Positions 3,331 through 63,203 of a stretch of DNA of 64,000 nt are shown here, piece by piece. Under the pieces are notes generated by a model. The model was not told the DNA's origin. It worked only from the letters and a program-made list of their open reading frames with translations, and searched no databases. The first letter of the stretch is position 1, and the number at the start of each line of letters is the position of its first letter. The stretch lies in the NCBI RefSeq assembly GCF_024502345.1, contig NZ_JALDNN010000002.1; one strand, given 5' to 3'. This DNA comes from Escherichia coli. GTDB taxonomy: Bacteria; Pseudomonadota; Gammaproteobacteria; Enterobacterales; Enterobacteriaceae. The translations under genes were made by a program, and so were the position numbers.

Positions 3331-4150
3331 GGCACTGTTGCAAAGTTAGCGATGAGGCAGCGTTTTGTCTTATTCAAAGGCCTTACATTTCAAAAACTCT
3401 GCTTACCAGGCGCATTTCGCCCAGGGGATCACCATAATAAAATGCTGAGGCCTGGCCTTTGCGTAGTGCACGCATCACCTCAATACCTTTGATGGTGGCG
3501 TAAGCCGTCTTCATGGATTTAAATCCCAGCGTGGCGCCGATTATCCGTTTCAGTTTGCCATGATCGCATTCAATCACGTTGTTCCGGTACTTAATCTGTC
3601 GGTGTTCAACGTCAGACGGGCACCGGCCTTCGCGTTTGAGCAGAGCAAGCGCGCGACCATAGGCGGGCGCTTTATCCGTGTTGATGAATCGCGGGATCTG
3701 CCACTTCTTCACGTTGTTGAGGATTTTACCCAGAAACCGGTATGCAGCTTTGCTGTTACGACGGGAGGAGAGATAAAAATCGACAGTGCGGCCCCGGCTG
3801 TCGACGGCCCGGTACAGATACGCCCAGCGGCCATTGACCTTCACGTAGGTTTCATCCATGTGCCACGGGCAAAGATCGGAAGGGTTACGCCAGTACCAGC
3901 GCAGCCGTTTTTCCATTTCAGGCGCATAACGCTGAACCCAGCGGTAAATCGTGGAGTGATCGACATTCACTCCGCGTTCAGCCAGCATCTCCTGCAGCTC
4001 ACGGTAACTGATGCCGTATTTGCAGTACCAGCGTACGGCCCACAGAATGATGTCACGCTGAAAATGCCGGCCTTTGAATGGGTTCATGTGCAGCTCCATC
4101 AGCAAAAGGGGATGATAAGTTTATCACCACCGACTATTTGCAACAGTGCC
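3331..4150 (-). mobile_element. IS26 copy 1 (820 bp)
   Basis: 14-bp IRs GGCACTGTTGCAAA at both ends; flanking 8-mers differ (cgattagg vs ggcagacg), so no target-site duplication. Confidence 0.97.
3383..4087 (-). CDS. tnpA: IS26 transposase Tnp26 (234 aa)
   Basis: [25 protein letters not shown]... canonical Tnp26 sequence. Confidence 0.97.
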   Translation of the reverse strand: MNPFKGRHFQRDIILWAVRWYCKYGISYRELQEMLAERGVNVDHSTIYRWVQRYAPEMEKRLRWYWRNPSDLCPWHMDETYVKVNGRWAYLYRAVDSRGRTVDFYLSSRRNSKAAYRFLGKILNNVKKWQIPRFINTDKAPAYGRALALLKREGRCPSDVEHRQIKYRNNVIECDHGKLKRIIGATLGFKSMKTAYATIKGIEVMRALRKGQASAFYYGDPLGEMRLVSRVFEM

Positions 4151-6082: not shown

Positions 6083-6385
6083 TTATCGTTGTTTTGCTTC
6101 TGCGATTAATCTGGATATCTCTGTTTTTGATAAACTTTTTAGTGCCTCTACCGCTGCCCTGACTACGTCAGAACGATTCACTCTGCTTTTACCTGAAATC
6201 ATTTCACCCGTTATAAGATCATCAATGTCTTTTAAGTTTTCTTCAAAAAAGGAAATGCTCACTGGTTTTGCTTTACTTACAGCCAATGGTCTCTCTGAAG
6301 TCACTTTGGTATTATCAATACCAGCAGTACCACCGTTAATAAACGCTGCCTCATCACGAGATGGAGTATTTGCTCTATTTCTCAC
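6083..6385 (-). CDS. small partition protein (ParG/ParB-like partner of ParA)
   Basis: 100-aa ORF with 4-bp overlap to the upstream ParA gene; typical type Ib organisation. Confidence 0.6.
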   Translation of the reverse strand: MRNRANTPSRDEAAFINGGTAGIDNTKVTSERPLAVSKAKPVSISFFEENLKDIDDLITGEMISGKSRVNRSDVVRAAVEALKSLSKTEISRLIAEAKQR

Positions 6386-7011
6386 AGAATAACCTCTTTA
6401 ACTAACGATTCGATTTCTTGTTGTGCTTTGTCATTTTGCGTTTCAAATATTGTCATTGATTCTGCCCAAGCATCTCGATGCGCTTTTCGATCACAAACTC
6501 GGGAGTTAGCCAGCCGCATTTCAGGATAATCCTTGAGTACGTCAGCTGCCTGATTTGCTTCATTGACAAACATGTTCGTGGGCGTCATGTTTAAAACGAG
6601 ATATCCCCGGACGTCCTCATTAAAATCTTTTGCTGCTGTAAAAACAGAGCATGTATGAGGCACTACATCCAGGTCCATCTGAGAAGGCCGCAACGGAGAA
6701 ATGAATACGTCAGCGGCCATCAACCCACTACGCATTTCTGCACTGTCGCGGCCAGCACAGTCTGCGATGACAAAGTCATAAGATTTCTCGTGTTCCTTTA
6801 GCATGGCTTTGATGTTGCCTGTTGCGCCAGTAACCGGAATATGGGGAAGATCTTCAGGACGATTGTTGTACCAGGTCAATACAGATTTCTGGTCATCTGC
6901 GTCGACAATGATCACTCGATTGCCCAGTGACATCAGATACGCAGCTATAGATACCGCCAGTGTACTTTTACCAACCCCACCCTTTTGACTACCCAATACT
7001 ATTATCATCAC
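6382..7011 (-). CDS. parA: ParA-family partition ATPase (small, type Ib)
   Basis: 209 aa; deviant Walker A GSQKGGVGKST at N-terminus. Confidence 0.85.
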   Translation of the reverse strand: MMIIVLGSQKGGVGKSTLAVSIAAYLMSLGNRVIIVDADDQKSVLTWYNNRPEDLPHIPVTGATGNIKAMLKEHEKSYDFVIADCAGRDSAEMRSGLMAADVFISPLRPSQMDLDVVPHTCSVFTAAKDFNEDVRGYLVLNMTPTNMFVNEANQAADVLKDYPEMRLANSRVCDRKAHRDAWAESMTIFETQNDKAQQEIESLVKEVIL

Positions 7012-7164
7012 AGCCTCATATTAAGTTGTTAAGTTAACAACTTAATATTGCCAAACAGGCGGCAATATTGCAATACCATTATTAAGTTAACATCTTATTA
7101 AGTTAATAACTACATGAATTATAATTAAATTACCTTTATACCTTAACAAATTGGTAAGATGTTA

Positions 7165-7194
7165 GGATAACAAGATAACAAGATAACAAGATGG
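7165..7194. repeat. ACAAGATA direct repeats (about 3.5 copies)
   Basis: ggataacaagataacaagataacaagatgg upstream of parA. Confidence 0.6.
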
Positions 7195-7269
7195 CAAAGT
7201 GGTGCCTTTATCCGAAATCCCCATAGAACCGCATAATGCGGCTTTCAACTCCAGGCTACCTTTAGGGAG

Positions 7270-7580
7270 GGTAGTATCAACCAGTTATGACCGCGTGAAG
7301 CAAAAAGTGGGGTGTAGTGGGAAGCCTTTGAATCTTCGGTGTGTCGAAGTGGGGAGTTGGTGAGACAAATTTGGTAAAAGGTGGGGAGAAGCTGGATTGC
7401 TTTTCACTTCTATCCAAAAAGGTGTGTTGAAGTGGGAAGGTGCGTAAGTATATACAGATAAAAACACACATTTAACAGGTTCTCATCCCGCTACAACACA
7501 CCTATTAAGACGTTTAAGGCGAGGCTTCCCCTTACAACACACCTATCAAAATGTTTAAGAAGAGAGCTCCCGTTTCAACA
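7270..7580. promoter_or_regulatory. iteron cluster downstream of repA (repeats containing ACAACACACCT/GGTGTGT)
   Basis: Multiple spaced repeats of aggtgtgttg / acaacacacct. Confidence 0.6.
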
Positions 7581-7584
7581 CACC

Positions 7585-8478
7585 TTATACAGCTGTTCCT
7601 GGTTTCAGATTTGCTGAGCGACGGTGGATCAGAATGAAAGTCTCTTTACCTTTTTTGGTGATGCTGTGGTCAAGGTACCCAATATCCTGCAACTGCTTGA
7701 GGGCCAGTTTAATGATACGGTTCTGTTCCTTTACCGGAGAGAGCAATGAGAGCCTGTCTCGTATTCGTTTGAAAGATATGGGGACTGGGTTCGTAGGCAG
7801 ACTTTCGATGAAAGTATACAGGGCCTGAGCTGCTTCCTTTCGGGTTAAAGCATTTATCGGCTTATGTCGTAGCAGAACAGTGTAATCAGTTTGGTAGAGT
7901 TCCCATAGTCGCTGATCAGCTTCAAGTTCCACCTGGTCGTTTGCAAAATCCAGTTCACCTGTCTTAAGCAAACCTGTTACGGAAACTTTTTGAAGGCCCT
8001 CTGAGTCGCTACGGGTAAAGGTAATGGTCTTGCCACGTATCCTGGTCAAAGCTTCTGAAATACTTTTTCTAAGACGGGAATCGAATCTCTTAGACTCAAA
8101 GCGGCACATTCCAGCAAACTCATGAAAAGTAAGCTTAATGCTGTTGGTTTTTAAACCGTACTTACTGAAAGCTTCTATGATACCGACCCATACCTTGAAG
8201 TCGATGGCCATACTCAACCGTTCACCGGTTATACGAATATCGTCGTAACCCTCCCGCCTTGAGAATTCCAAATCCTTGAGAACAGAGGTCGCATCGATTG
8301 ATGTTCTAGTGCCCTTTGCAGGCCTGCTTGAAGGAACAAAAACATTTAATCTCATCAGGGCTACAGGCTGAACTGTGGCCTTACTTGTGACGGTGAGTTT
8401 ATTGTTAACACTTTCACAATCTGGACCTATAACCTCGCCGATATAAACATTCTCATTCATATAGTTATATCCATTCAT
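7585..8478 (-). CDS. repA: replication initiator RepA (Rep_3 family, RepFIB-like)
   Basis: 297 aa; Rep_3-type sequence; iterons on both sides. Confidence 0.85.
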   Translation of the reverse strand: MNGYNYMNENVYIGEVIGPDCESVNNKLTVTSKATVQPVALMRLNVFVPSSRPAKGTRTSIDATSVLKDLEFSRREGYDDIRITGERLSMAIDFKVWVGIIEAFSKYGLKTNSIKLTFHEFAGMCRFESKRFDSRLRKSISEALTRIRGKTITFTRSDSEGLQKVSVTGLLKTGELDFANDQVELEADQRLWELYQTDYTVLLRHKPINALTRKEAAQALYTFIESLPTNPVPISFKRIRDRLSLLSPVKEQNRIIKLALKQLQDIGYLDHSITKKGKETFILIHRRSANLKPGTAV

Positions 8479-8871: not shown

Positions 8872-10143
8872 TTAACCGATCCTCGCAACGGGGATATCTC
8901 TCCAGCGAGTGGTGTACGCAGGGGAGAGCATATCGCGTTTCATTTGCCAGGATGGCACAATTCCTCTACCGGCAAACCATACTTTACCCAGCCCTGAGTT
9001 GTTGATCCCGTCCAGAACCCTCATCAGCTCAGCACTGTGAGGGCGTGGCGGGCGTTCGTCGAACAGCTGCAGCTGCGAAACGCCGGAGCCGGTGAAGTCA
9101 TTCAGCATAACTCCGGCTTTGGCATACCTGTGCCCATCCCTCCAGATACGCTCCAGAGCCGTTGTGGCGGCTGCAATGATGTCCCTGGTGTCCTGAGTGG
9201 GTGTAAGAAGTTTTTCCGTAGCCACGTTGCCGTAGTAAGGCTCTTTAACGGCGAACGGAGACGTTTTGATGAAAACGGAAATATGCCGGCAATACTGGTG
9301 CTCTTTACGCAGCTTTTCAGAGGCCCGCTCTGCGTGCTGACAGATAGCCTGACGGAGTGACTCGTACTCCGTGATCTTCACGCCAAAACTGCGGCTGCAG
9401 ACAATTTGCTGTTTCGTCGGAGGGGCTTCCTCAAGCGAAAGGCAGCTTTCCCCGTTCAGTTCCCGTACCGTTCGCTCAAGGACGACAGAAAAATTTTTGC
9501 GGATGAAGGCCGGGTTCGTCAGAGCCAGATCGAGCGCGGTCTTAATGCCCAGTACATTCAGCTTGCGTGCAATACGGTTACCCACCCCCCAGATTTCTTC
9601 AACCGGCTGCAGTGAAAGCAGTTTCCGCGTTCTCTGCGGATTTCCCCTGGTCAGAGCAAGTACGCCACGAAACTGTTTCCACTCTTTTGAGGCCCACTGG
9701 GCTGATTTTGCGAGGGTCTTCGTTGGCCCGGCGCCCACGCCAATGGTAAGGCGGGTACAGTCATACACGTGCTGACGCAGCTGCCGGCCGAAGTCCTCAA
9801 GCTCCATACAGTGCTCCACGCCGGTCAGGTCGAGGAACATCTCATCAATTGAATACTGTTCCACCCTGGGGGCCAGTTCCTCCAGGCTGTTCATCACGCG
9901 CGCCGACATCGAAGCATAAAGTTCATAGTTACTTGAAAACGCATATATTTTTTCCGGGTATCTTTCGTTTTTTATCTGAAACCACGGAGTTCCCATTTTG
10001 ATCCAGCGCTTCGCCTCGGCACTGCGAGCGATTACGTTCCCGTCGTTGTTGCTCAGGACGACTATCGGCTTTCCTTTCAAATCCGGTCGGAAAACACGTT
10101 CACAGCTGGCATAGAAGCTGTTCACATCGGCCAGGGCAAACAT
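8872..10143 (-). CDS. umuC: error-prone DNA polymerase V subunit UmuC (Y-family polymerase)
   Basis: 423 aa; [22 protein letters not shown]... N-terminus and Y-family polymerase motifs. Confidence 0.95.
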
Positions 10144-10574
10144 CAGTACATCTCCCTCGGGCGGTGGATGATATGCGTGACGACGCCAAAGATATCCAGC
10201 TCATCGGGGTCAGGATAAGTCGGCGACCAGGAGGCATTCATGGGCTGCAGCGTCAGTCGAGGCGTCAGCAGAAGCCGTTTAACCGTAAACTCCCCCTGTA
10301 CGCTGGCGACAACGATATCGCCGTGCCGCGGCTTTTCAGCACTGTCCACAACCAGCAGATCGCCATTGTACAGACTACCGTCCGCCATGCTGTCTCCGCT
10401 GGCACGCAGGTAGTACGTCGCGCTCGGATGCCGTATGCAGTAATCATGGAGATCCAGATCGGACTCGACATAGTCAGCGGCAGGGCTGGGAAAACCGCAG
10501 CTGGCCAGATCGGCAAACAATGGATGAGCCTGTGGCGGGTGTTCTTTCCCGGTGCTGAAAAGCTGTAGCTTCAT
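10143..10574 (-). CDS. umuD: UmuD (LexA-like self-cleaving peptidase S24)
   Basis: 143 aa from ATG at 10574 ([13 protein letters not shown]...), preceded by GGAGGA RBS; stop overlaps umuC start; the 270-aa track ORF is an upstream over-extension. Confidence 0.9.
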
Positions 10575-10597: not shown

Positions 10598-10617
10598 TAC
10601 TGGTTATGCATACAGTG
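10598..10617. promoter_or_regulatory. LexA (SOS) box TACTGGTTATGCATACAGTG
   Basis: CTG-N10-CAG core with one mismatch to consensus, about 25 bp upstream of umuD start. Confidence 0.7.
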
Positions 10618-12562
10618 TGCGCCGGGAGACCGGTAGAGATCAAGGGGTGAAAGTCCCCGACCATTGAAGGACCAGCAATCCACAAGGTCCCCGAGTCATG
10701 CGTTGCATACCGCGAGGTATGGGGCGAAGCGTTGACAGGGGTGTTGACAGGCCAGCCATTGAGCCACGAAATGTATATTAAATTACCGGGTGCCGACGTT
10801 GTACTGTTAACGGAAGGCAACATCATAGGGTGCGATACTGCGAGTGCCACATGGACCCGGCGGGGTCTGAGACCCTGGCATGTCAATACGATCTCTACGC
10901 GGGAACCGGGAGATCTCCCCTCTGACCATCTGCCAGTGTCGGAGATGGCCCGCACCGGGAAGACGAGGAGTCATAGCCGGTGATGTACGGAGAGGAGAAG
11001 TCGGACTCGCTCATAGTAGCGGCGAAGCAGGCGAACAACCCGAAAGGAGCGGAGTCAGTGGAGCGAAGGAGCGGGGCCAAGGGGAACGTGGAACAGCCAC
11101 ACATGCGCCGGACACAGAGCCGGGAAAGCATGTCACAGAGGCTGTCACGCGTGCGGGAAGCTGCGAAGCAGCGGAAGAAAGAACGGTTTACAGCATTGTT
11201 CCACCTGCTGACAGTCGAAGCACTGGAAGCCGCATTCCTCTCCCTGAGCAGGAAAGCGGCCGCCGGAGTGGATGGCATCAGGTGGATGGACTACGCCGGA
11301 AACATGAAGAACAACATAACAGATCTGCACCGGAGGCTACATCAGGGCAGCTACAGGGCGCAGCCCGGCAGGCGTCACTACATCCCAAAAGCGGATGGAA
11401 AACAACGCCCGCTCGGCATCGCCTCGCTGGAGGACAAGATCGTCCAGTATGCGCTGGTGAAAATCCTGAACGCAGTCTATGAAAACGACTTTATGGGGTT
11501 CTCATACGGGTTCAGACCCGGGCGAAGCCAGCACGATGCACTGGACGCACTGGCCACAGGGCTGGTACGCACTAACGTAAACTGGGTACTGGATGCCGAC
11601 ATCAGTCAGTTCTTCGACAGGGTGAGCCACGAATGGCTGATCAGGTTCACAGAGCATCGGATCGGCGACCGGAGCGTAATCAGGCTCATACGTAAGTGGC
11701 TCACAGCCGGGACGTTGGAGGAGGGTCAATGGCGAGCAACGGAGGAAGGCACCCCACAGGGTGCGGTCATCTCACCGCTGCTGGCAAACATATACCTCCA
11801 CTACGTCTTCGATCTGTGGGCGCATCAGTGGCGACGTCGCTATGCCACAGGCAATGTGGTAATGGTCAGATACGCCGATGACATCGTCATCGGGTTCGAC
11901 AAACGATACGATGCCCGGCGCTTCCGTATAGCCATGCAGCGCAGACTGAGGGAGTTCGGACTCACGGTTCACCCGGAGAAAACCCGTCTGATGGAGTTCG
12001 GCCGCTTCGCTGCCGAAAACCGTGCCATCAGGGGAAAAGGCAAACCAGAAACGTTCAACTTCCTCGGGTTCACGCACATCAGCGGGAAAGATCGCAACGG
12101 CAGGTTCATGCTGATACGAAAGACCCGCCGGGATCGGATGACGGCAACTCTGAAAGCCATCAAAGACGGTCTGCGAAGGCGCTGGCATTACTCAATCCCC
12201 GAACAGGGAAAATGGCTCAGGAGAGTGGTTCAGGGATACCTGAACTATCACTCGGTACCGGGCAACTTCCCCACCATGCAGAAGTTCAGGACACACGTAA
12301 CAAACCTCTGGCGCCGGGCGCTCAGGCGCAGGAGCCAGAAGGATGATACGACCTGGACGAAAGCAAACAAACTGGCAGCCGCATGGCTACCAAGGGTTCG
12401 GGTTCTTCATCCATGGCCTGTGGAGCGGTTCACCGCCAGACACCCGAGGCAGGAGCCCGGTGCGTAAATCGCGCACGCCGGGATCTGTGCGGGGGGTATC
12501 CGGTAACGGGTATCCCTACCGCGACATATTTAACAGCGTGACGATAATCCAGATCGCCTGCC
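10617..12562 (+). mobile_element. group II intron (bacterial, RT/maturase-encoding); 3' boundary approximate
   Basis: GTGCG at 10617-10621, about 360 bp structured leader, RT/maturase ORF, GNRA-loop hairpin near the 3' end; IS1 abuts at about 12563. Confidence 0.7.
10983..12467 (+). CDS. group II intron reverse transcriptase/maturase
   Basis: RT motifs incl. YADD (...MVRYADDIVIGF...), maturase domain, no endonuclease domain. Confidence 0.9.
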   Translation: MYGEEKSDSLIVAAKQANNPKGAESVERRSGAKGNVEQPHMRRTQSRESMSQRLSRVREAAKQRKKERFTALFHLLTVEALEAAFLSLSRKAAAGVDGIRWMDYAGNMKNNITDLHRRLHQGSYRAQPGRRHYIPKADGKQRPLGIASLEDKIVQYALVKILNAVYENDFMGFSYGFRPGRSQHDALDALATGLVRTNVNWVLDADISQFFDRVSHEWLIRFTEHRIGDRSVIRLIRKWLTAGTLEEGQWRATEEGTPQGAVISPLLANIYLHYVFDLWAHQWRRRYATGNVVMVRYADDIVIGFDKRYDARRFRIAMQRRLREFGLTVHPEKTRLMEFGRFAAENRAIRGKGKPETFNFLGFTHISGKDRNGRFMLIRKTRRDRMTATLKAIKDGLRRRWHYSIPEQGKWLRRVVQGYLNYHSVPGNFPTMQKFRTHVTNLWRRALRRRSQKDDTTWTKANKLAAAWLPRVRVLHPWPVERFTARHPRQEPGA

Positions 12563-33948: not shown

Positions 33949-34768
33949 GGCACTGTTGCAAATAGTCGGTGGTGATAAACTTATCATCCCCTTTTGCTGA
34001 TGGAGCTGCACATGAACCCATTCAAAGGCCGGCATTTTCAGCGTGACATCATTCTGTGGGCCGTACGCTGGTACTGTAAATACGGCATCAGTTACCGTGA
34101 GCTGCAGGAGATGCTGGCTGAACGCGGAGTGAATGTCGATCACTCCACGATTTACCGCTGGGTTCAGCGTTATGCGCCTGAAATGGAAAAACGGCTGCGC
34201 TGGTACTGGCGTAACCCTTCCGATCTTTGCCCGTGGCACATGGATGAAACCTACGTGAAGGTCAATGGCCGCTGGGCGTATCTGTACCGGGCCGTCGACA
34301 GCCGGGGCCGCACTGTCGATTTTTATCTCTCCTCCCGTCGTAACAGCAAAGCTGCATACCGGTTTCTGGGTAAAATCCTCAACAACGTGAAGAAGTGGCA
34401 GATCCCGCGATTCATCAACACGGATAAAGCGCCCGCCTATGGTCGCGCGCTTGCTCTGCTCAAACGCGAAGGCCGGTGCCCGTCTGACGTTGAACACCGA
34501 CAGATTAAGTACCGGAACAACGTGATTGAATGCGATCATGGCAAACTGAAACGGATAATCGGCGCCACGCTGGGATTTAAATCCATGAAGACGGCTTACG
34601 CCACCATCAAAGGTATTGAGGTGATGCGTGCACTACGCAAAGGCCAGGCCTCAGCATTTTATTATGGTGATCCCCTGGGCGAAATGCGCCTGGTAAGCAG
34701 AGTTTTTGAAATGTAAGGCCTTTGAATAAGACAAAAGGCTGCCTCATCGCTAACTTTGCAACAGTGCC
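33949..34768 (+). mobile_element. IS26 copy 2 (820 bp), no TSD
   Basis: 14-bp IRs; flanks tcaattag vs gctttttt. Confidence 0.97.
34012..34716 (+). CDS. tnpA: IS26 transposase Tnp26
   Basis: Same sequence as copy 1 in the track. Confidence 0.97.
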   Translation: MNPFKGRHFQRDIILWAVRWYCKYGISYRELQEMLAERGVNVDHSTIYRWVQRYAPEMEKRLRWYWRNPSDLCPWHMDETYVKVNGRWAYLYRAVDSRGRTVDFYLSSRRNSKAAYRFLGKILNNVKKWQIPRFINTDKAPAYGRALALLKREGRCPSDVEHRQIKYRNNVIECDHGKLKRIIGATLGFKSMKTAYATIKGIEVMRALRKGQASAFYYGDPLGEMRLVSRVFEM

Positions 34769-49494: not shown

Positions 49495-49532
49495 GGGGTC
49501 GGTTCCGGCTGAGGGCGAAATGACACCCTAAG
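49495..49532. repeat. Tn3-family 38-bp terminal IR (GGGGTCGGTTCCGGCTGAGGGCGAAATGACACCCTAAG) overlapping tnpA stop
   Basis: GGGG...CTAAG architecture with the tnpA stop codon inside the IR. Confidence 0.7.
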
Positions 49533-52419
49533 CTTTCGGTTCCTTGGGCCAAAGATATTCGCCAGTCAGTAGAATGTGCGCCCAGCCCAATGGGGATATG
49601 TGGGGAAGAAATTCAGGGGGAACATCCAACCCTTCGTTCCGCCGCTCCGTGACGGCATGACCAAGATGGACGGTATTCCAGTAAATGATCACCGCAGTCA
49701 ATAAATTGAGCCCAGCGATTCGGTAGTGCTGCCCCTCTGTCGTGCGATCGCGAATTTCCCCCTGCCTCCCGATACGGAGCGCATTTTTGAGCGCATGGTG
49801 GGCCTCTCCCTTGTTAAGACCGATCTGAGCACGCCGCTGCATGTCCGTATCCAGGATCCACTCAATAATGAAAAGGGTCCGTTCAATACGACCAACTTCA
49901 CGAAGCGCAACTGCAAGGTTGTTTTGTCGTGGGTAAGAAGCGAGCTTGCGCAGGAGTTGGCTGGGCCTGATTTTGCCAGCGGTCATCGTCGCGGCACAAC
50001 GGAAAATATCAGGCCAGTTCGCAACGATAAGATCCTCCCGGGCTTTTCCACCTACCAACTTGCGTAACTCCCTGGGGGTCGTATCGGGATTAAATACGTA
50101 CAACCGCTTCGATGGCAGATCCCTGATTCGCAGAACGAGATTGTAGCCGAGCAGGCTACTGGCTCCGAACAAATGGTCGGTGAATCCTGCTGTATCGGCA
50201 TACTGTTCGCGAACATGGCGACCGACCTCGTTCATCAGTAGTCCATCGAGAATATACGGTGCCTCGCTCACGGTCGCCGGGATCGACTGACAAGCGAATG
50301 GCGCGAACTGGTCGCTTACGTGAGTATACGCTTTGAGGCCGGGAACAGAACCATATTTGGCATTGACCATGTTCATGGCTTCGCCATGCCGCGCTGTCGG
50401 GAAAAACTGACCATCGCTCGATGCTGACGTGCCCATCCCCCAGACGCGTGACATCGGCAGTTTACCCTGCGCGGCCACCACAATTGCCAATGCCTGGTTC
50501 ATGGCTTCGCTTTCAACATGCCAGCGGGCAAGGCGTGAGAGCTGCCAGTAATCATGCGTGTTTGTAGCTTCCGCCATCTTACGCAGGCCCAGATTGAGCC
50601 CTTCAGCGAGCAGGACGTTGAGCAGACCGATCCGGTCGCGACATGGAGCCCCGGTTCTCAGATGGGTAAACGCATCTGTGAAACCAAGGGCTGCATCAAC
50701 TTCAAGCAGCATGTCGGTAATCCGAACGGACGGCATTCGGCGATACAGATCCAGTATGAGTGCCTCGGCACCATCCGGCACGTCTGCTGTCAACCTGTCG
50801 ATCCGCAACGTTCCATCTTCTATGCTACCGTGCGGAATAGTGCCGTTACGGGCAGCCCGGGCCAGCCGCTTAAGAGCGATCGTGAGTCGCGCCTTTCTGT
50901 CTGCCAGCCAATCCTGTGGGTTGGAAGGCACGGCCAGTTTTGCATTTTCCTGCGCCGCGATCATCGGCACCAGTACCTGCTTGAGGTCACCATAGCGGCG
51001 CGAATGAGCGAGCCAGACATCTCCGGAACGAAAAGCATCCCGGAGGTGAAAGAGTACCGCCACTTCCCAAAGACGGGTATCTCCTTTTTCCTGAGCTCGT
51101 AAATGACGGTTCCATTTGGAGCTGGGCCGCAGGAAACGCCTTTCTGGCGATGCAACACCTTTCATCTCTCCGATCGACAAAGCTGCTGCTACCAATGGTC
51201 CGGCGACCGGCGCGGCTTCGAGCTTCAGACAGCGCAACATGCGGGGCGCATAACGACGAAAGCGATGGTATCCCTGCCCGACATATGCAAGAGGCTCATC
51301 GGCTAGCGTGTTGCTGAGTTGAGTCCCTGTCGCTACCAGTTGAGCGAGCCGGTCCCATGCAACCGAACTGGCGACAGCCATCTCCAGCGGGGTTCCGTCA
51401 CTGCGGGCCTCAAGCAACGAAGCTCCCAGCGCGGTGAAGGTACGGATCGTATCCGTGAGTGTGGCTTTAGAGCCGGAAATTGTTTCGTCATGCTGGCGCT
51501 TCGCTTCCCGCCAGGTTTTTCCTACGATCCTGTCATGGGTTTCGACTATGGCATCAGCAATCGCCGCTTCCCACTCCACAACACAGACGGCAAGGATCGC
51601 CCAGCGGCGGTCCGAAGTGATGTCACGCAAACCGTCGGTGAAGTAGCGTTCACCCTGCCGACGCAGCCGGGCAATGCGATGGGCAGGTATGCTGGCCAAA
51701 GCACTATGATTGATATTCAGGGTACGCAGAAATTCGAGCCTGTCGAGCAAACGGTTAGCAGCAGCCGAGTTGTTACCAACCTCGAAGTTGCGAAGCCAGA
51801 TGAAACGACTGATATTGCCGGCGAGCATTTCACTCAGAAGTTTGTCCAGGTGATCGCGAACATCCGCTGTTAAATTTTCCGCAATCCGCGTTTCAATCCG
51901 CCGCTCAGCGGCGACCAGAGCATCCGCGCACAAGCGCTCGATTGTCGATACTGCGGGCAGAATGGTGGAAGTTTCCCGACACCGCACAATAAAACGATGA
52001 GCAAGATCCTCGTTTGATCTGGCATCTTCGGCCTGGCCGAAAGTCCACTCCCGCAGATCACGGGCACCACGGCCCGTGAAGGTCTTGTAGCCGTAAATTT
52101 CGCGCAGCGTGTCCATGTGCTGCTGACGGGTTTGGCGCCGTGTGGCATAAGTGAGAAGCGCATCAGCCGGAACTCCAAGCTGAGCACCGACGAAGGAAAG
52201 GACTTCACGCGGGATCATCTCACCAGGAGCCAGTGCACGGCCCGGATATCGTAAGGCACAAAGTTGCAGGGCAAAGCCAATCCTGTTTTCCGGTCTGCGG
52301 CGCTGCCTAATGTTTTCCAGGTCATCATCGCCCAGCGTGTAGAACTTCAGTAGCGACAGTTCGTCCGTGGGCAGATCGAACAGCGCTGCTCGCTGCCGTT
52401 CGGTGAAAATATGGCGTCG
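49528..52419 (-). pseudogene. tnpA: Tn3-family transposase TnpA, 5'-truncated by IS26 (about 960 of ~1000 codons remain)
   Basis: 896-aa track ORF with upstream frame open to the IS26 boundary; conserved C-terminal blocks (...GMGTSASSDGQFF..., ...LSPLGWAHILLTGEYLW...). Confidence 0.9.
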
Positions 52420-53239
52420 GGCACTGTTGCAAAGTTAGCGATGAGGCAGCCTTTTGTCTTATTCAAAGGCCTTACATTTCAAAAACTCTGCTTACCAGGC
52501 GCATTTCGCCCAGGGGATCACCATAATAAAATGCTGAGGCCTGGCCTTTGCGTAGTGCACGCATCACCTCAATACCTTTGATGGTGGCGTAAGCCGTCTT
52601 CATGGATTTAAATCCCAGCGTGGCGTCGATTATCCGTTTCAGTTTGCCATGATCGCATTCAATCACGTTGTTCCGGTACTTAATCTGTCGGTGTTCAACG
52701 TCAGACGGGCACCGGCCTTCGCGTTTGAGCAGAGCAAGCGCGCGACCATAGGCGGGCGCTTTATCCGTGTTGATGAATCGCGGGATCTGCCACTTCTTCA
52801 CGTTGTTGAGGATTTTACCCAGAAACCGGTATGCAGCTTTGCTGTTACGACGGGAGGAGAGATAAAAATCGACAGTGCGGCCCCGGCTGTCGACGGCCCG
52901 GTACAGATACGCCCAGCGGCCATTGACCTTCACGTAGGTTTCATCCATGTGCCACGGGCAAAGATCGGAAGGGTTACGCCAGTACCAGCGCAGCCGTTTT
53001 TCAATTTCAGGCGCATAACGCTGAACCCAGCGGTAAATCGTGGAGTGATCGACATTCACTCCGCGTTCAGCCAGCATCTCCTGCAGCTCACGGTAACTGA
53101 TGCCGTATTTGCAGTACCAGCGTACGGCCCACAGAATGATGTCACGCTGAAAATGCCGGCCTTTGAATGGGTTCATGTGCAGCTCCATCAGCAAAAGGGG
53201 ATGATAAGTTTATCACCACCGACTATTTGCAACAGTGCC
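52420..53239 (-). mobile_element. IS26 copy 3 (820 bp), transposase variant, no TSD
   Basis: 14-bp IRs; flanks tggcgtcg vs gcgagaag. Confidence 0.97.
52472..53176 (-). CDS. tnpA: IS26 transposase variant (M58I, G184D relative to copies 1 and 2)
   Basis: ...[10 protein letters not shown]... and ...[10 protein letters not shown]... versus ...APEMEK... / ...KRIIGATLGF... Confidence 0.95.
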
Positions 53240-54471
53240 GCGAGAAGGTTTTCAGGCCGGATTTGCGCGGCAAACCTGTCGTCGTTCTCAGTAACAACGA
53301 TGGCTGCGTTATTGCCCGGAGTGCTGAAGCCAAACGGCTGGGTATAAAGATGGGAACCCCCTGGTTCCAGCTCAAAGAGGCGCAGTTTCCTGAAAAATTG
53401 TACGTTTTTTCCAGCAACTACGAGCTCTACGCGAGCCTGAGTAACCGTGTGGTCGCCCTGCTGGAAGAGCTGTCGCCCCGCGTCGAACAATACTCAATTG
53501 ACGAATGTTTCCTGGATGCCCGGGGAATTGGCCACTGTATGGATCTGGAGGATTTTGGCAGGCAGCTGCGTGGGCATGTTCTCAGTGGAACCGGACTGAC
53601 GATCGGTGTCGGCTTCGGCGCCACAAAAACACTGGCCAAATCGGCGCAGTGGGCGTCAAAGGAATGGCCACAATTCAGTGGGGTGCTGGCGCTGTCGCCC
53701 GAAAATCCACGCAGAACGGCAAAATTACTCAGCCTGCAGCCGGTGGAAGAAATCTGGGGCGTAGGGAACCGGATAGCGAAAAAGCTGCACGTTATGGGGA
53801 TCACCACTGCCCTGCAGCTGTCGCTGACGAACCCTACATTTATCCGGAAAAACTTCAACGTAGTGCTGGAGCGCACGGTACGTGAGCTGAACGGCGAGAG
53901 CTGCATTTCGCTGGAGGAAGCGCCGCCGCCGAAACAGCAGATTGTCTGCAGTCGCAGCTTCGGGCAGCGGATCACCACCTACGAAGAAATGCGCCAGGCC
54001 GTCTGCCAGTATGCCGAGCGCGCGGCGGAAAAGTTGCGCGGTGAGCGACAGTACTGCCGGCATATCAGCACCTTCATCAAGACATCCCCTTTTGCGGTTA
54101 ATGAGCCGTATTACGGTAACGTGGCCACGGAAAAACTGAACACCCCTACCCGTGACACCCGGGACATTATCGCGGCAGCGGTCAGGTCTCTGGACAGGAT
54201 CTGGCTCGATGGCCACCGCTACGCAAAAGCGGGGATAATGCTCAATGATTTCAGTCCGAACGGCGTCGCGCAGCTGAATCTGTTCGATGACGTGCAGCCA
54301 CGGCCGCACAGCGATGCGCTGATGAAGGTACTCGACGGCATTAATCATTCCGGACTCGGGAAAGTCTGGTTTGCCGGACGGGGTATTGCGCTGGACTGGC
54401 AGATGAAACGGGAGATGCTGTCACCGGCATATACCACCCGCTGGAAGGAGCTGCCGGTTGCCCGTTTCTGA
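53240..54471 (+). pseudogene. umuC: second UmuC-family Y-polymerase gene, 5'-truncated by IS26 (no umuD partner)
   Basis: Reading resumes at ...[20 protein letters not shown]... right at the IS26 end; about 16 N-terminal codons missing. Confidence 0.9.
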
Positions 54472-54549: not shown

Positions 54550-54801
54550 ATGACAAATATCATTCTGTGTGATGTGACTGCCAGCATCAGCGAACTTAAA
54601 AACGATCCGGTGGCCACCGCCAGTGCCGGCGGCGGCTACCCGGTCGCGATTATTGACCGCAACCGCCCTGTTTTTTATTGTGTGCCCGCGGCTCTGTATG
54701 AACAAATGCTCGATGCGCTGGACGAAAAAGACCTGGTGCAATTGATAACAGAACGTCAAAACCAGCCGCTGCGTGAAGTGGATCTCAATCAGTATCTGTG
54801 A
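54550..54801 (+). CDS. type II antitoxin-like protein (Phd/YefM/YafN family)
   Basis: ...TASISELKNDPVATA...PVAIIDRNRPVFYCVPAALYEQMLDALDE... resembles YafN/Phd from memory. Confidence 0.6.
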   Translation: MTNIILCDVTASISELKNDPVATASAGGGYPVAIIDRNRPVFYCVPAALYEQMLDALDEKDLVQLITERQNQPLREVDLNQYL

Positions 54802-54854: not shown

Positions 54855-55160
54855 ATGGGTAGCAAAATCGCAGGTGTGGTTTTCTTATTCTTCACTGTCT
54901 GGGGAATGGCTTCAGTGATTGAATTGCAGTACTGGCGTAACGCTGATACCTATCCTGTCTGGCTGACAAAACATCTCCGGATCTCTCCCGAAAATAACGA
55001 AAAGAGCCTGATAAGGATAGGAATGGAAACCTTTGACAAGGTATGTGGTGATAACAGGGGCCTCCTTGCCGTCACCCAAAAACAAAACGGTATGTTTATG
55101 CGCTGTGATGATTCCCCCGGATTTTTTTCATGGTTCAGCGGCGTTTACAAAGTCAGTTAA
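54855..55160 (+). CDS. small protein with N-terminal hydrophobic segment (101 aa), unknown function
   Basis: ATG 54855 with AAGGAA RBS; MGSKIAGVVFLFFTVWGMASV...; not RelE/ParE/YafO-like. Confidence 0.45.
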   Translation: MGSKIAGVVFLFFTVWGMASVIELQYWRNADTYPVWLTKHLRISPENNEKSLIRIGMETFDKVCGDNRGLLAVTQKQNGMFMRCDDSPGFFSWFSGVYKVS

Positions 55161-55633: not shown

Positions 55634-56100
55634 GTGCCGACGATGCAGGTGGGACCGTGGTCCCAGGCAGATTACCTGACCGACGATGCAGGTGGGACCG
55701 TGGTCCCAGGCAGATTACCTGACCGATGACGCAGGTGGGACCGTGGTCCCAGACAGATAACCTGACCGACGACGCAGGTGGGACCGTGGTCCCAGACAGA
55801 TTACCTGACCGATGACGCAGGTGGGACCGTGGTCCCAGACAGATAAGCTGACCGATGACGCAGGTGGGACCGTGGTCCCAGGCAGATAACCTGACCGACG
55901 ACGCAGGTGGGACCGTGGTCCCAGTCAGATAACCTGACCGATGACGCAGGTGGGACCGTGGTCCCAGACAGATTACCTGACCGACGACGCAGGTGGGACC
56001 GTGGTCCCAGGCAGATAACCTGACCGATGACGCAGGTGAGACCGTGGTCCCAGGCAGATAACCTGACAGACGATGCAGGTGGGACCGTGGTCCCAGAGAG
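55634..56100. repeat. sopC: sopC-type centromere: about 11 tandem 43-bp repeats each with TGGGACCGTGGTCCCA inverted repeat
   Basis: Tandem units ...cgatgcaggtgggaccgtggtcccaggcagattacctgacc... Confidence 0.9.
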
Positions 56101-56184: not shown

Positions 56185-57156
56185 TTAGACTCCTGGTTTC
56201 TCAAGCTCCTTAAGAATGGCTTCTATTTTCTCTATACACTCCGCAGGAATGCGGGACCGATCTAGGTTAAGCACTATTTTATCGCCCTTATACAATGCTG
56301 TTGCCCCTGGAGCAAACTGATGACGTGAACTCAGATTAACTCTTGATGCGCGAGATTGTTTCAGTACGGATGTTAAAAGACTAATGACCTCTTCAGCTTC
56401 AAAGATTAGTCCCGCTTTCTTCTGATCGTGGAGAGTCTCAGCCTGCTGCTTCAGTAATTCTTCTTTATCTGCAAAAGCCTTCTGAAGGGCTTCACCTGAC
56501 CGGGCAGACAGTTCTCCAGGATGTGCAAACAGGGCAACAACTGATTTAGGCAGTTTGGCCGTATTGATACAGCGGGTAATGATCTTACGAGAGATGTTTT
56601 CCGCATCGGCAAGCGCAGAAATATTTCCGGCAAACTCATTCTGCAGCCGGCTTGTATAACGCAGGCCACGTTCATAAGCACTCGTCGGCCGATAATCGTT
56701 ACCCAGCCGGGACAATGCAGCCATCTGCTCGTCGTCCAGTTCACCAACCAGAATGCGATAATCACTTTCCGTCAGGATTGCGGCTTTACGGCGACGGCTG
56801 CCGTCTGCAATTTCTATGACATCAGAAACCCAGCGGCCGAAAGCTGGAGTCTGCTGACCGGTCAGTAAAAATGAAGGTATGAGATCATCCAGAGCATCTT
56901 CGGTAAGTAGTTCCTGATCACGCTCATTTCCTGACCATACGCGTGAGGCGCTCTCAACAGACTCTCCCCGGAGCACCTCAAGGGTAAATTTTACTTCCCG
57001 TCCACATACCGGAAGAGAGATAGCATTACCGCGGGCCATAGCACCCACGCGCGCAATTAATGAATCCACCATCGGCGCGGCCGGCGCCGGTGATGAAGTA
57101 TCTTCAGTCGATTGAGTATGTGTGGTATGCCTTGGAATGACAGGGGCACGCTTCAT
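56185..57156 (-). CDS. sopB: partition protein SopB (ParB family)
   Basis: 323 aa matching F-plasmid SopB from memory. Confidence 0.95.
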
Positions 57157-58331
57157 TATCTAATCTCCCAGCGTGGTTTAATCAGACGATCAAAAATCTC
57201 ATTACAAACAGGTTCCCAGATTGAAAGTGCGTTTCGCCATGCGCCGGTCGAAGAACGTTGATCAATCGCCTGTTCGAAAACGGTTCTCATGCGGATCTGG
57301 CCTTTACCAACTTCATCGGTTTCACGTACCACATTTTTAAGAACCATGCTTCCCCATGCATCGCGAATTTGTTCTTCCATCCACGGTGACTGCGAACCAT
57401 TGTTATTACTGTATTTGGTAAGCAGAATACGGACATCCGGCTCAAAGCCTTTAAGATCCACATTCCTGAGCAGATCACGAAGCATATCGAAAAACTGCAG
57501 TGCAGAAGTGTAATCGAACAGCTCTGCCGGGGTGGGAACAATCAGCACATCAGCAGCGCATACGACATTGATCGTGCCAATACCGAGGTTCGGTGCGCTG
57601 TCGATAACAATCACATCATAGTCATGAGCGACCGTTTCAATAGCAAGGCGGAGCATCAGATGCGGGTCGGTGGGCAGTTTTCCTTCATCAAATTTGCCCA
57701 TCAGTTCAGTTTCAATGCGATGCAGTGCCAGGCAGGACGGAATGATATCAAGGCCAGGCCAGCAGGTTGGTTTTATCGCATAACTGGCATCATCCTTTTC
57801 ACCAAGATAAAAGGGCAGGAGAGTATCTTCCGCGTGTATATGAAGATCGGGCACCCATCCGTGATACATCGAGGCTGTGCCCTGAGGATCATTACCCTCG
57901 ACAAGCAGAACGCGTAATCCTTTCAGGGCCAGGTCCTGAGCCAGGTGAACAGAAACGGAGGTTTTGTAAACACCACCTTTGTGAGCAGCAACACCAATCA
58001 CCGGCGGAAACGCATCTTCAGCACGGCGCAGTCGTGTACCAAATACATCCCGCATGTGATTGATTTGCTCGATGGTATAACCAACGCGTTGCTCAACTCT
58101 TCCACGGGTTTCCATATCAGGGTGAGGCAGCCGGCCAGCTTTCTCGGCATCCCTGATAGCCTGAGATGACACGCCAACTAAATCAGCTGCTTCACCAATC
58201 CTCCAGCGCCGGGTTATTTTCCGGGCTTCCGGACTGTCATCATTAAACTGCGCAATGGCGATTGCTTTCGTCATTTCATGACCAGCACTTATGCACTGGT
58301 TGAGTGTATCCATGAGTCCCATACTGAACAT
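57156..58331 (-). CDS. sopA: partition ATPase SopA (ParA type Ia)
   Basis: 391 aa; Walker A ...[10 protein letters not shown]...; near-identical to F SopA as recalled. Confidence 0.95.
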
Positions 58332-58827: not shown

Positions 58828-59169
58828 TTGAGAGAGGTAACCAGGATGACAAAACATAACCGATTTCCCCCTGAAGTTCGTCAACGCGCTATTCGTATGG
58901 TTCTGGAAAACCAGAATACCTACAACTCACAATGGGCCGCTATCTGCTCCATTGCCCCTAAGATCGGCTGCACTCCCGAGACATTGCGTATCTGGATCCG
59001 TCAGCAGGAGCCCGTTGATGATGAGCAGAATGCGCTGACTGCCAGCGAACGCCAGCGTCTGAAAGAACTGGAGCGGGAAGTCCGCGAGCTGCGCCGCAGC
59101 AATGATATTCTGCGTCAGGCTTCAGCGTATTTTGCCCAGGCGGAGCTCGACCGCCACTGGAAAAAATAA
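58828..59169 (+). CDS. IS3-family transposase OrfA
   Basis: ...RFPPEVRQRAIRMVLENQNTYNSQWAAICSIAPKIGCTPETLRIWIRQQ... Confidence 0.9.
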   Translation: MREVTRMTKHNRFPPEVRQRAIRMVLENQNTYNSQWAAICSIAPKIGCTPETLRIWIRQQEPVDDEQNALTASERQRLKELEREVRELRRSNDILRQASAYFAQAELDRHWKK

Positions 59170-59583
59170 TGCCGCTTCTGGAAAATCTGAGCGGTGAACA
59201 CGGGGTCGGGCCAGTCTGTCATGAGCTGGATATTGCTCCGTCAACGTACTACTGGCATCAGCAACGCCGGAAGTGTCCTGAACGACGCAGTAGTCGGGAT
59301 AAACGCGATGCCGTGCTGATACCTGAGATACAGCGCGTATACGAAGAAAACTACAGCGTTTACGGTGTGCGTAAGGTCTGGCGACAGCTAAAACGTGAAG
59401 GTGTCGGCGTTGCCCGCTGCACCATTGAGCGCCTGATGAAAGCCCTGCAGCTACGTGGGGTGACACGCGGCAAAAGTGTCAGAACCACCCGCAGCAACAA
59501 AGCCGAAACACCGCAGGATCGGGTGAACAGGCAGTTCGTGGCTGAACGGCCCGATAGTCTTTGGGTGGCCGATTTTACCTACG
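59169..59583 (+). pseudogene. IS3-family OrfB, exon-1 part (interrupted by group II intron after ...FTY)
   Basis: ...ERPDSLWVADFTY then intron GTGTG. Confidence 0.85.
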
Positions 59584-61740: not shown

Positions 61741-63113
61741 CCGGCGTTGATGGCGTGAACAAAACAATGCTACAGGCCAGACTGGCTGTTGAGCTGCAAA
61801 TCCTCAGGGATGAATTACTCTCAGGCCACTACCAGCCCTTGCCCGCCAGACGGGTTTACATCCCTAAAAGCAACGGCAAACTGCGACCACTGGGTATCCC
61901 CGCGTTGCGGGATCGTATTGTTCAGCGGGCCATGCTGATGGCGATGGAGCCGATATGGGAGAGTGATTTTCATACGCTCTCATATGGCTTCCGGCCTGAG
62001 CGCAGTGTCCACCACGCGATCCGCACGGTGAAATTACAGCTCACAGACTGTGGTGAAACCCGGGGACGCTGGGTGATTGAAGGCGACCTGTCCAGTTACT
62101 TCGACACCGTACATCATCGACTGCTGATGAAGGCTGTACGCCGCAGGATCAGTGACGCACGTTTCATGACTCTGCTGTGGAAAACCATCAAGGCGGGACA
62201 TATCGATGTCGGTCTCTTTCGGGCGGCCAGTGAAGGTGTGCCACAGGGCGGTGTTATATCGCCGCTATTATCGAACATCATGCTGAATGAGTTCGATCAA
62301 TACCTGCATGAGCGCTACCTGAGCGGGAAAGCCAGAAAAGATCGGTGGTACTGGAATAACAGTATCCAACGGGGCCGAAGTACGGCGGTCAGAGAAAACT
62401 GGCAGTGGAAACCCGCGGTGGCGTACTGCCGCTATGCCGATGATTTTGTCCTCATCGTCAAAGGCACCAAAGCACAGGCGGAAGCCATCAGGGAGGAGTG
62501 TCGGGGTGTGCTCGAAGGCAGTCTGAAACTCAGGCTGAACATGGATAAGACTAAAATCACCCATGTTAATGACGGCTTTATCTTTCTGGGGCACAGGATC
62601 ATTCGCAAACGCAGTCGTTATGGCGAGATGCGAGTGGTCTCAACGATCCCGCAGGAGAAAGCCAGAAACTTCGCCGCATCGCTGACAGCACTGTTATCAG
62701 GCAACTACAGTGAAAGCAAAGTCGATATGGCTGAACAACTCAACCGAAAACTGAAAGGCTGGGCCATGTTCTATCAGTTCGTTGATTTTAAGGCCAAAGT
62801 CTTCAGTTATATCGACCGTGTCGTGTTCTGGAAGCTGGCTCACTGGCTGGCCCGCAAATACCGTACAGGTATCGCTTTCCTGATGAGGTGGTGGTGTAAA
62901 CCACCGAAACCGGGTCAGAGCAAAACGTGGGTTTTATTTGGTAAAACCAATCACGGCAAGCTCAGCGGCGAAATACTGTACCGGTTGGTGGGGCAAGGTA
63001 AGAAGCTGTTCCGCTGGCGGCTACCCGAAGGTAATCCCTATCTGAGGACGGAGACCAGAAACACGTATACATCGCGCTTTACAGAAGTGGCAATGGCGTT
63101 CGCCAGCATTTAA
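61741..63113 (+). pseudogene. intron RT/maturase, C-terminal part
   Basis: ...PGVDGVNKTMLQ... RT domains with YADD (...YCRYADDFVLIV...) and maturase region. Confidence 0.85.
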
Positions 63114-63118
63114 ATGGA

Positions 63119-63152
63119 GAGCCGGATGCGCTGAAAGGTGCACGTCCGGTTC
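63119..63152 (+). ncRNA. group II intron domain V (GAGCCGGATGCGCTGAAAGGTGCACGTCCGGTTC)
   Basis: Canonical domain V hairpin with AGC triad and GAAA tetraloop, 6 nt after the RT stop. Confidence 0.85.
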
Positions 63153-63203
63153 GGGGAGGAGAGGCAGGGAAATAGTCCGACTACGCCCTGCCTCTTACTC
63201 TAC

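Follow-up and report, generated by a model that had tools for sequence, protein, structure and literature searches.

The locus described here is a 5'-truncated umuC gene abutting a complete IS26 element in Escherichia coli DNA (the window, i.e. the whole 64-kb stretch that was analyzed). Its features, together with those of a second, intact umuDC operon used for comparison, are listed in Table 1. The fragment adjoins the IS26 end that lies nearest to the start of the transposase gene, and umuC sequence follows the last base of the element directly, as had been claimed in the original prediction. The other side of the same IS26 cuts a Tn3-family transposase gene, whose frame is open up to the IS26 boundary and in which only the first few codons are missing. 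The element therefore sits between two 5'-decapitated genes, both of which read away from it.

Table 1. Coordinates of features at the IS26-umuC locus and in the comparison region of the window
Feature	Position	Strand	Remarks
RepB-family replication gene	7585-8478		adjoins intact umuDC
Intact umuC	8872-10143	-	comparison operon
Intact umuD	10143-10574	-	comparison operon
LexA-like box of intact operon	10600-10615		CTGGTTATGCATACAG
Tn3-family transposase gene	49528-52419	-	5' end cut by IS26; NCBIfam NF033527, 910 bits
Complete IS26	52420-53239	-	820 bp; perfect 14-bp terminal inverted repeats GGCACTGTTGCAAA ... TTTGCAACAGTGCC
tnp26 transposase gene	52472-53176	-	234 aa; single DDE transposase gene of IS26
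Formal fusion ORF	53167-54471	+	434 aa; 24 IS26 codons, junction Arg, UmuC 15-423
Outward -35 element TTGCAA	53227-53232	+	in IS26 inverted repeat; fits a hybrid-promoter -35
5'-truncated umuC	53240-54471	+	covers nucleotides 41-1272 of intact umuC; codon 14 keeps its last two bases, codons 15-423 and the stop are complete
Phd/YefM/YafN-like ORF	54550-54801	+	83 aa; 78 bp downstream of umuC stop
Hypothetical ORF	54855-55160	+	101 aa; no family match; hydrophobic N-terminus
parC-type centromere array	55637-56096		10.7 copies of a 43-bp tandem repeat, 94% matches
parB	56185-57156	-	
sopA	57156-58331	-	

The element was assigned to IS26 (IS6/IS26 family) on the basis of its length, inverted repeats and transposase, and matching records annotate it as IS26. 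The window has two more copies of IS26 (3331-4150 and 33949-34768), from which this one differs by 2–3 bases. Its transposase carries M58I and G184D relative to both of these copies, and a change at residue 184 has been reported for a hyperactive IS26 variant. No 8-bp target-site duplication was present at the element, the left flank (TGGCGTCG) and the right flank (GCGAGAAG) being unrelated. None of the three copies in the window had such a duplication, and when their flanks were compared with one another for exchanged duplication halves, no matches were detected. Since loss of the duplication is expected after intramolecular transposition or IS-IS recombination, it is no argument against the IS26 identity of the element.

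The breakpoint was mapped against the intact umuC (1272 bp, 423 aa) of Klebsiella pneumoniae pKpN06-SIL (NZ_CP012994; positions 6339-7610 of locus L002). Base 53240 of the window corresponds to base 41 of this gene, and the alignment is collinear from there to the stop codon at 54471. The loss amounts to 13 complete codons plus the first base of codon 14; an N-terminal loss had been predicted, but its size, put at about 16 codons, was slightly too high. Codon 14, which is TGC (Cys) in the intact gene, is now CGC (Arg), completed by the last C of IS26. The predicted absence of umuD was also observed, with IS26 lying directly upstream of the fragment instead. In an intact relative, K. pneumoniae INF167_p0001 (NZ_KY454639, locus L006), a 426-bp umuD (2274-2699) overlaps the umuC ATG by one base, and a perfect LexA/SOS box (TACTGTATATATATACAGTA, 2234-2253) is located 20 bp upstream of the umuD ATG. 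Comparison with intact operons, which the original prediction had suggested as a check, thus revealed that nothing of the operon before base 41 of umuC remains upstream of 53240: the LexA box, the promoter and umuD are missing, as are 40 bases of umuC, and the IS26 end takes their place. The operon context of UmuC, an overlapping upstream umuD under control of a LexA box, is absent from the fragment, and the motif CTGT-N8-ACAG did not occur anywhere in the 64-kb window.

Over the 1230 retained bases, the fragment is approximately 99% identical in nucleotide sequence to the intact alleles of Klebsiella IncFIB(K) umuDC (INF167_p0001 and pKpN06-SIL), from which it differs at 10–15 positions (4–6 nonsynonymous and 6–9 synonymous codon differences). 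Its reading frame is fully open, with no nonsense mutation and no frameshift relative to these alleles. Sequence decay was considered as evidence for relaxed selection and rejected, as the codon differences were too few and not polarized. The absence of decay is what would be expected if the truncation was a recent event.

The same Klebsiella plasmids also share the region downstream of umuC, which comprises a phd-like gene, a hypothetical gene, 43-bp parC repeats, parB and sopA. The truncated umuC belongs to an IncFIB(K)-type maintenance block composed of umuDC, these downstream elements and repB. The 43-bp unit of the array matches the parC centromere-like repeat known from Klebsiella plasmids of the repA/repB1 IncFIB family (PMC7319535). 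Alignments of related plasmids are offset at the array, so the repeat copy number varies. The first downstream ORF had been described as a YafN-like gene about 80 bp from the 3' end of umuC. The distance held (78 bp to the ATG at 54550), but the likeness to YafN is weak: the Pfam Phd/YefM match (E = 3.8e-4) was below the gathering score, and the NCBIfam YafN match reached 30 bits against a cut-off of 99. No recognizable toxin partner accompanied this 83-aa ORF. The 83-aa and 101-aa ORFs occurred as a conserved pair downstream of umuC in all relatives examined. Further along the window, Rfam matches were found to an ALIL pseudoknot (IS3-family frameshift element) at 59124-59240 and to a second group II intron domain 5/6 at 63117-63203, just after a 452-aa ORF (61755-63113).

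At the protein level the fragment is 78% identical (320/409) to the intact UmuC of the window, so that the two copies are clearly divergent, as predicted. A 64-kb K. pneumoniae plasmid shows the same layout of the intact umuDC, the RepB gene and a group II intron (99.8% identical), as do hundreds of further plasmids at approximately 98%. The intact umuDC is a component of a second backbone, which is RepB/IncR-like. The window derives from a mosaic plasmid that has two replication regions and was assembled around three IS26 copies, which accounts for the presence of two umuC genes. The group II intron (Rfam RF02005 at 10650-10875, reverse transcriptase/maturase ORF at 10980-12467, both on the + strand) starts approximately 35 bp beyond the LexA-like box and is divergent to umuDC, an arrangement also seen in K. 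pneumoniae NZ_CP065349. It may occupy or displace the -35 region of the intact umuDC promoter.

We further checked the occurrence of the exact IS26-umuC junction in other plasmids. It was detected as a single uninterrupted match in 8 PLSDB plasmid records and in 7 of 5426 complete E. coli genomes; five of these seven were already among the PLSDB records, giving 10 distinct plasmids. All 10 were from E. coli, ranged from 74 to 294 kb, and had human, wastewater, river water, seawater and sludge sources. They matched the window at 99.7–100% identity on the right side of IS26, whereas at least five different flanks were present on the left. The whole 1232-bp fragment was kept in 8 of the 10 plasmids. 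The other two had lost most of it, with 141 bases remaining in EcPF16 p1 and 426 bases in the SZQ1 plasmid, so the fragment is dispensable; this fits an absence of function but is no proof of it. The E. coli SZQ1 plasmid (NZ_CP173997.1, locus L005) additionally carries a CBASS anti-phage operon (CD-NTase, cap7 and cap6; 6209-8141), located about 2 kb downstream of the 426-base remnant, after an ImmA/IrrE-HTH pair. The umuDC lineage itself is common: approximately 1800 plasmid records matched it, 1568 of them from Klebsiella, and umuD and umuC were mostly intact. An IS26-truncated umuC is already known, being routinely reported, and the exact junction is present in public plasmids and protein databases.

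Several Klebsiella IncFIB(K) plasmids provide a context for the origin of the junction. In these plasmids, an IS26 in the same orientation is located upstream of an intact umuC ATG, at a distance of 198 bp in pKpN06-SIL and many others, 94 bp in pKC141K and 31 bp in pKqs_SB610_4. In pKpN06-SIL, pKC141K and pKqs_SB610_4, as in the window, umuD is truncated or lost and the promoter is gone, but their umuC genes are complete (423 aa), whereas the boundary in the window lies 40 bp inside umuC. The umuC genes of the plasmids with an upstream IS26 differ from that of the window at 10–11 of 1230 bases, and their IS26 alleles are not identical to the one in the window either. Together, the four boundaries form a nested series of the kind expected from successive adjacent deletions by a resident IS26. 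Transposition of IS26 within one molecule is known to remove the DNA that separates the element from its target, with loss of the flanking repeats (PMC7986276). The most likely route, deduced from these sequence comparisons, is an adjacent deletion by an IS26 already located in or next to umuD: replicative intramolecular transposition would have deleted the operon from its LexA-box promoter through umuD up to base 40 of umuC, and would have left the element without a target-site duplication. The near-identical right side and the at least five left flanks of the junction plasmids indicate that the junction arose once and was then inherited as a unit, with IS26 itself serving repeatedly as a recombination crossover.

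Alternatively, IS26 could have inserted directly in codon 14 of umuC, after which homologous recombination between IS26 copies or the resolution of a cointegrate would have exchanged the upstream half for other DNA. We consider this possible, but less likely. The missing target-site duplication is compatible with this route, as are the lack of a duplication at all three IS26 copies of the window and the left flanks, which differ in every lineage examined; a left flank shared between the window and a plasmid with IS26 in umuD was sought, and all examined left flanks differed. Moreover, the Klebsiella alleles with an upstream IS26 are not identical to the window allele. However, four boundaries of the same orientation within 240 bp better fit serial deletions, although the statistics are weak (1 in 8 for orientation). 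Insertion followed by recombination gives the same product as adjacent deletion, and the functional verdict is unaffected by the choice between them.

The fragment itself is UmuC by homology, which extends from the palm/fingers (IMS) and thumb (HHH) to the little finger (IMS_C) and the C-terminal DUF4113. It matched the NCBIfam profile for the translesion error-prone DNA polymerase V subunit UmuC (NF002955) with 767.7 bits against a cut-off of 431 bits, covering profile positions 14-422 of 422, and Pfam searches detected IMS (2.3e-33), IMS_HHH, IMS_C (7.3e-27) and DUF4113 (4.1e-20). The Pfam IMS match covered positions 11-146 in the fragment and 2-146 in the intact copy of the window. The profile matches and the alignment to solved Y-family structures settle the domain content. 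Two functional elements are retained: the acidic pair Asp101/Glu102, as YSIDE at residues 109-113 of the fusion described below (native 98-102), and the beta-clamp-binding motif QLNLF at fusion residues 369-373. In these features and in its NF002955 match, little finger and DUF4113, the fragment resembles UmuC of E. coli Pol V (UmuD'2C), from which it differs in the absence of residues 1-14 (including Asp6, Phe10 and Tyr11), of a cognate umuD and of an SOS box.

The missing residues are part of the active site. The N-terminal motif D-x-N/D-x-F-Y (Asp6 and Phe10/Tyr11) is not present, with residues 1-13 deleted and residue 14 changed. In the alignment with solved Y-family structures, UmuC residues 5-6 (Ala-Asp) correspond to Val-Asp 6-7 of Dpo4/Dbh, and Val7 corresponds to Phe8. 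The active-site metal of Dbh is held by Asp7, Phe8 and Asp105 as chelating residues (PMC11091320), and the steric gate of UmuC has been assigned experimentally to Phe10 and Tyr11 (PMC3401427). The 24 IS26-derived residues that would precede UmuC in the fusion have neither an Asp nor an aromatic residue at the positions of the lost motif, as read directly from the sequence. We know of no precedent in the Y family for polymerase activity without the N-terminal D-x-N/D-x-F-Y motif. If made, the product could fold and bind partners. Judged by the known Y-family catalytic triad, it should not be able to polymerize DNA, because the metal-binding Asp6 and the Phe10/Tyr11 steric gate are lost.

A search for in-frame start codons, another check that had been proposed, identified an ATG at 53167 within IS26, antisense to the beginning of tnp26, from which a 434-aa ORF runs uninterrupted to 54471. 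The product of this ORF is identical to RefSeq WP_227164542.1, annotated by NCBI as 'Y-family DNA polymerase' and on record on 94 contigs from several Enterobacteriaceae. All three frames that leave IS26 toward umuC are open (10, 24 and 228 codons), each with a start codon, so any gene fragment at this IS26 end gains a formal start, and the fusion ORF is not evidence for a gene. We therefore did not treat this ORF as special; it is a generic by-product of the IS26 end. The calculated Shine-Dalgarno pairing was -1.7 kcal/mol for ATG 53167 and +0.4 for TTG 53227, compared to -8.5 for the umuC start of the intact copy, and none of the in-frame starts of the fragment, all of which were scored, came near the sites of the intact copy. 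The next in-frame ATG (53350) is 37 codons further in, and a start there would cost the product another 37 residues.

Promoter signals were similarly poor. A standard scan of the + strand between 52300 and 54200 found no sigma-70-like promoter. IS26 can supply the -35 box of a hybrid promoter, and in the documented cases (aphA7, blaSHV-2a and blaKPC) an outward TTGCAA abuts a foreign gene (PMC7986276), as it does here. In those cases, however, the flank provides a functional -10 and the gene is an intact, selected one with its own start codon, whereas the window has a poor -10, a decapitated gene and no apparent selectable phenotype. No sequence near TATAAT is present 16–18 bp downstream of TTGCAA. 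The only -10 partner at 17-bp spacing is TTTCAG (53250-53255), which matches at 3 of 6 positions and lacks the conserved A2 and T6; the pairing, with 7/12 matches in total, was seen in a relaxed scan and was not reported by the standard one. A transcript from it would begin downstream of ATG 53167. The relaxed scan also gave two weak promoter-like sites inside IS26 (8/12 matches; 53108-53137 and 53139-53168). All of these candidates were rejected, as 7–8 matches of 12 are no better than background. In addition, the gene to the left of IS26 is on the - strand, so no read-through from that side is expected. The sequence thus appears to hold nothing that favors expression of the fragment, with the proviso that weak promoters can escape consensus scanning.

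We conclude with considerable confidence that the fragment is an IS26-generated pseudogene, consisting of the 3' 97% of an IncFIB(K)-type umuC, and has no function. The original prediction had left open whether it was an inert remnant or yielded, through a hybrid promoter formed with IS26, a polymerase with an altered N-terminus. An inert remnant agrees with the loss of the promoter and umuD, the failure to find a promoter or Shine-Dalgarno sequence, the deletion of the catalytic motif, and the loss of most of the fragment in 2 of the 10 plasmids. Confidence that the remnant is inert, although very high, is tempered by the open frame, the retention of the whole fragment in 8 of the 10 plasmids, the annotation of the ORF in RefSeq and the documented cases of IS26 hybrid promoters.

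Two other readings were weighed against a functionless pseudogene, and both appear very unlikely. According to the first, a catalytically dead UmuC is made at a low level and binds UmuD'2, RecA and the beta clamp, with a dominant-negative effect on both plasmid and chromosomal Pol V. Catalytically inactive UmuC variants are known to keep non-catalytic effects, and the fragment keeps the QLNLF motif and the whole C-terminal half; its ORF is intact in 8 of the 10 plasmids, and a second, intact umuDC is present on the same plasmid. If true, this would be a plasmid-borne anti-mutator created by an insertion sequence. However, expression signals were not found, the ORF is generic to this IS26 end, two plasmids lost most of the fragment without apparent consequence, and the 100% identity among carriers points to recent common descent rather than selection. 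The second reading, in which an N-terminally altered but active translesion polymerase is made from the fragment, with either an IS26/flank hybrid promoter or a weak antisense promoter within IS26 driving its expression, is the least probable of all: the in-frame ATG with its uninterrupted ORF and the outward -35 element that the prediction implied do exist, as do the weak sites inside IS26, the retained Asp101/Glu102, little-finger domain and clamp-binding motif, and a UmuD encoded elsewhere on the plasmid, but TTTCAG lacks the two most conserved positions, its transcript would start past the ATG, no Shine-Dalgarno sequence precedes that ATG and the next one lies well inside the gene, and the deleted metal ligand and steric gate have no substitute in the IS26-derived peptide.

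As a functionless pseudogene, the truncated umuC has a small biological weight. It represents one more case of IS26 eroding plasmid backbone genes and serving as a recombination point in mosaic plasmids that have several replication regions. RefSeq carries WP_227164542.1 as an ordinary polymerase, even though part of the active site, the partner gene and the promoter are lost, and any tally of plasmid-borne Pol V genes that relies on such annotation will overestimate the number of functional copies. The junction itself (TTTGCAACAGTGCC followed by GCGAGAAGG) could help, as a lineage marker, to trace this backbone segment from one E. coli plasmid to another.
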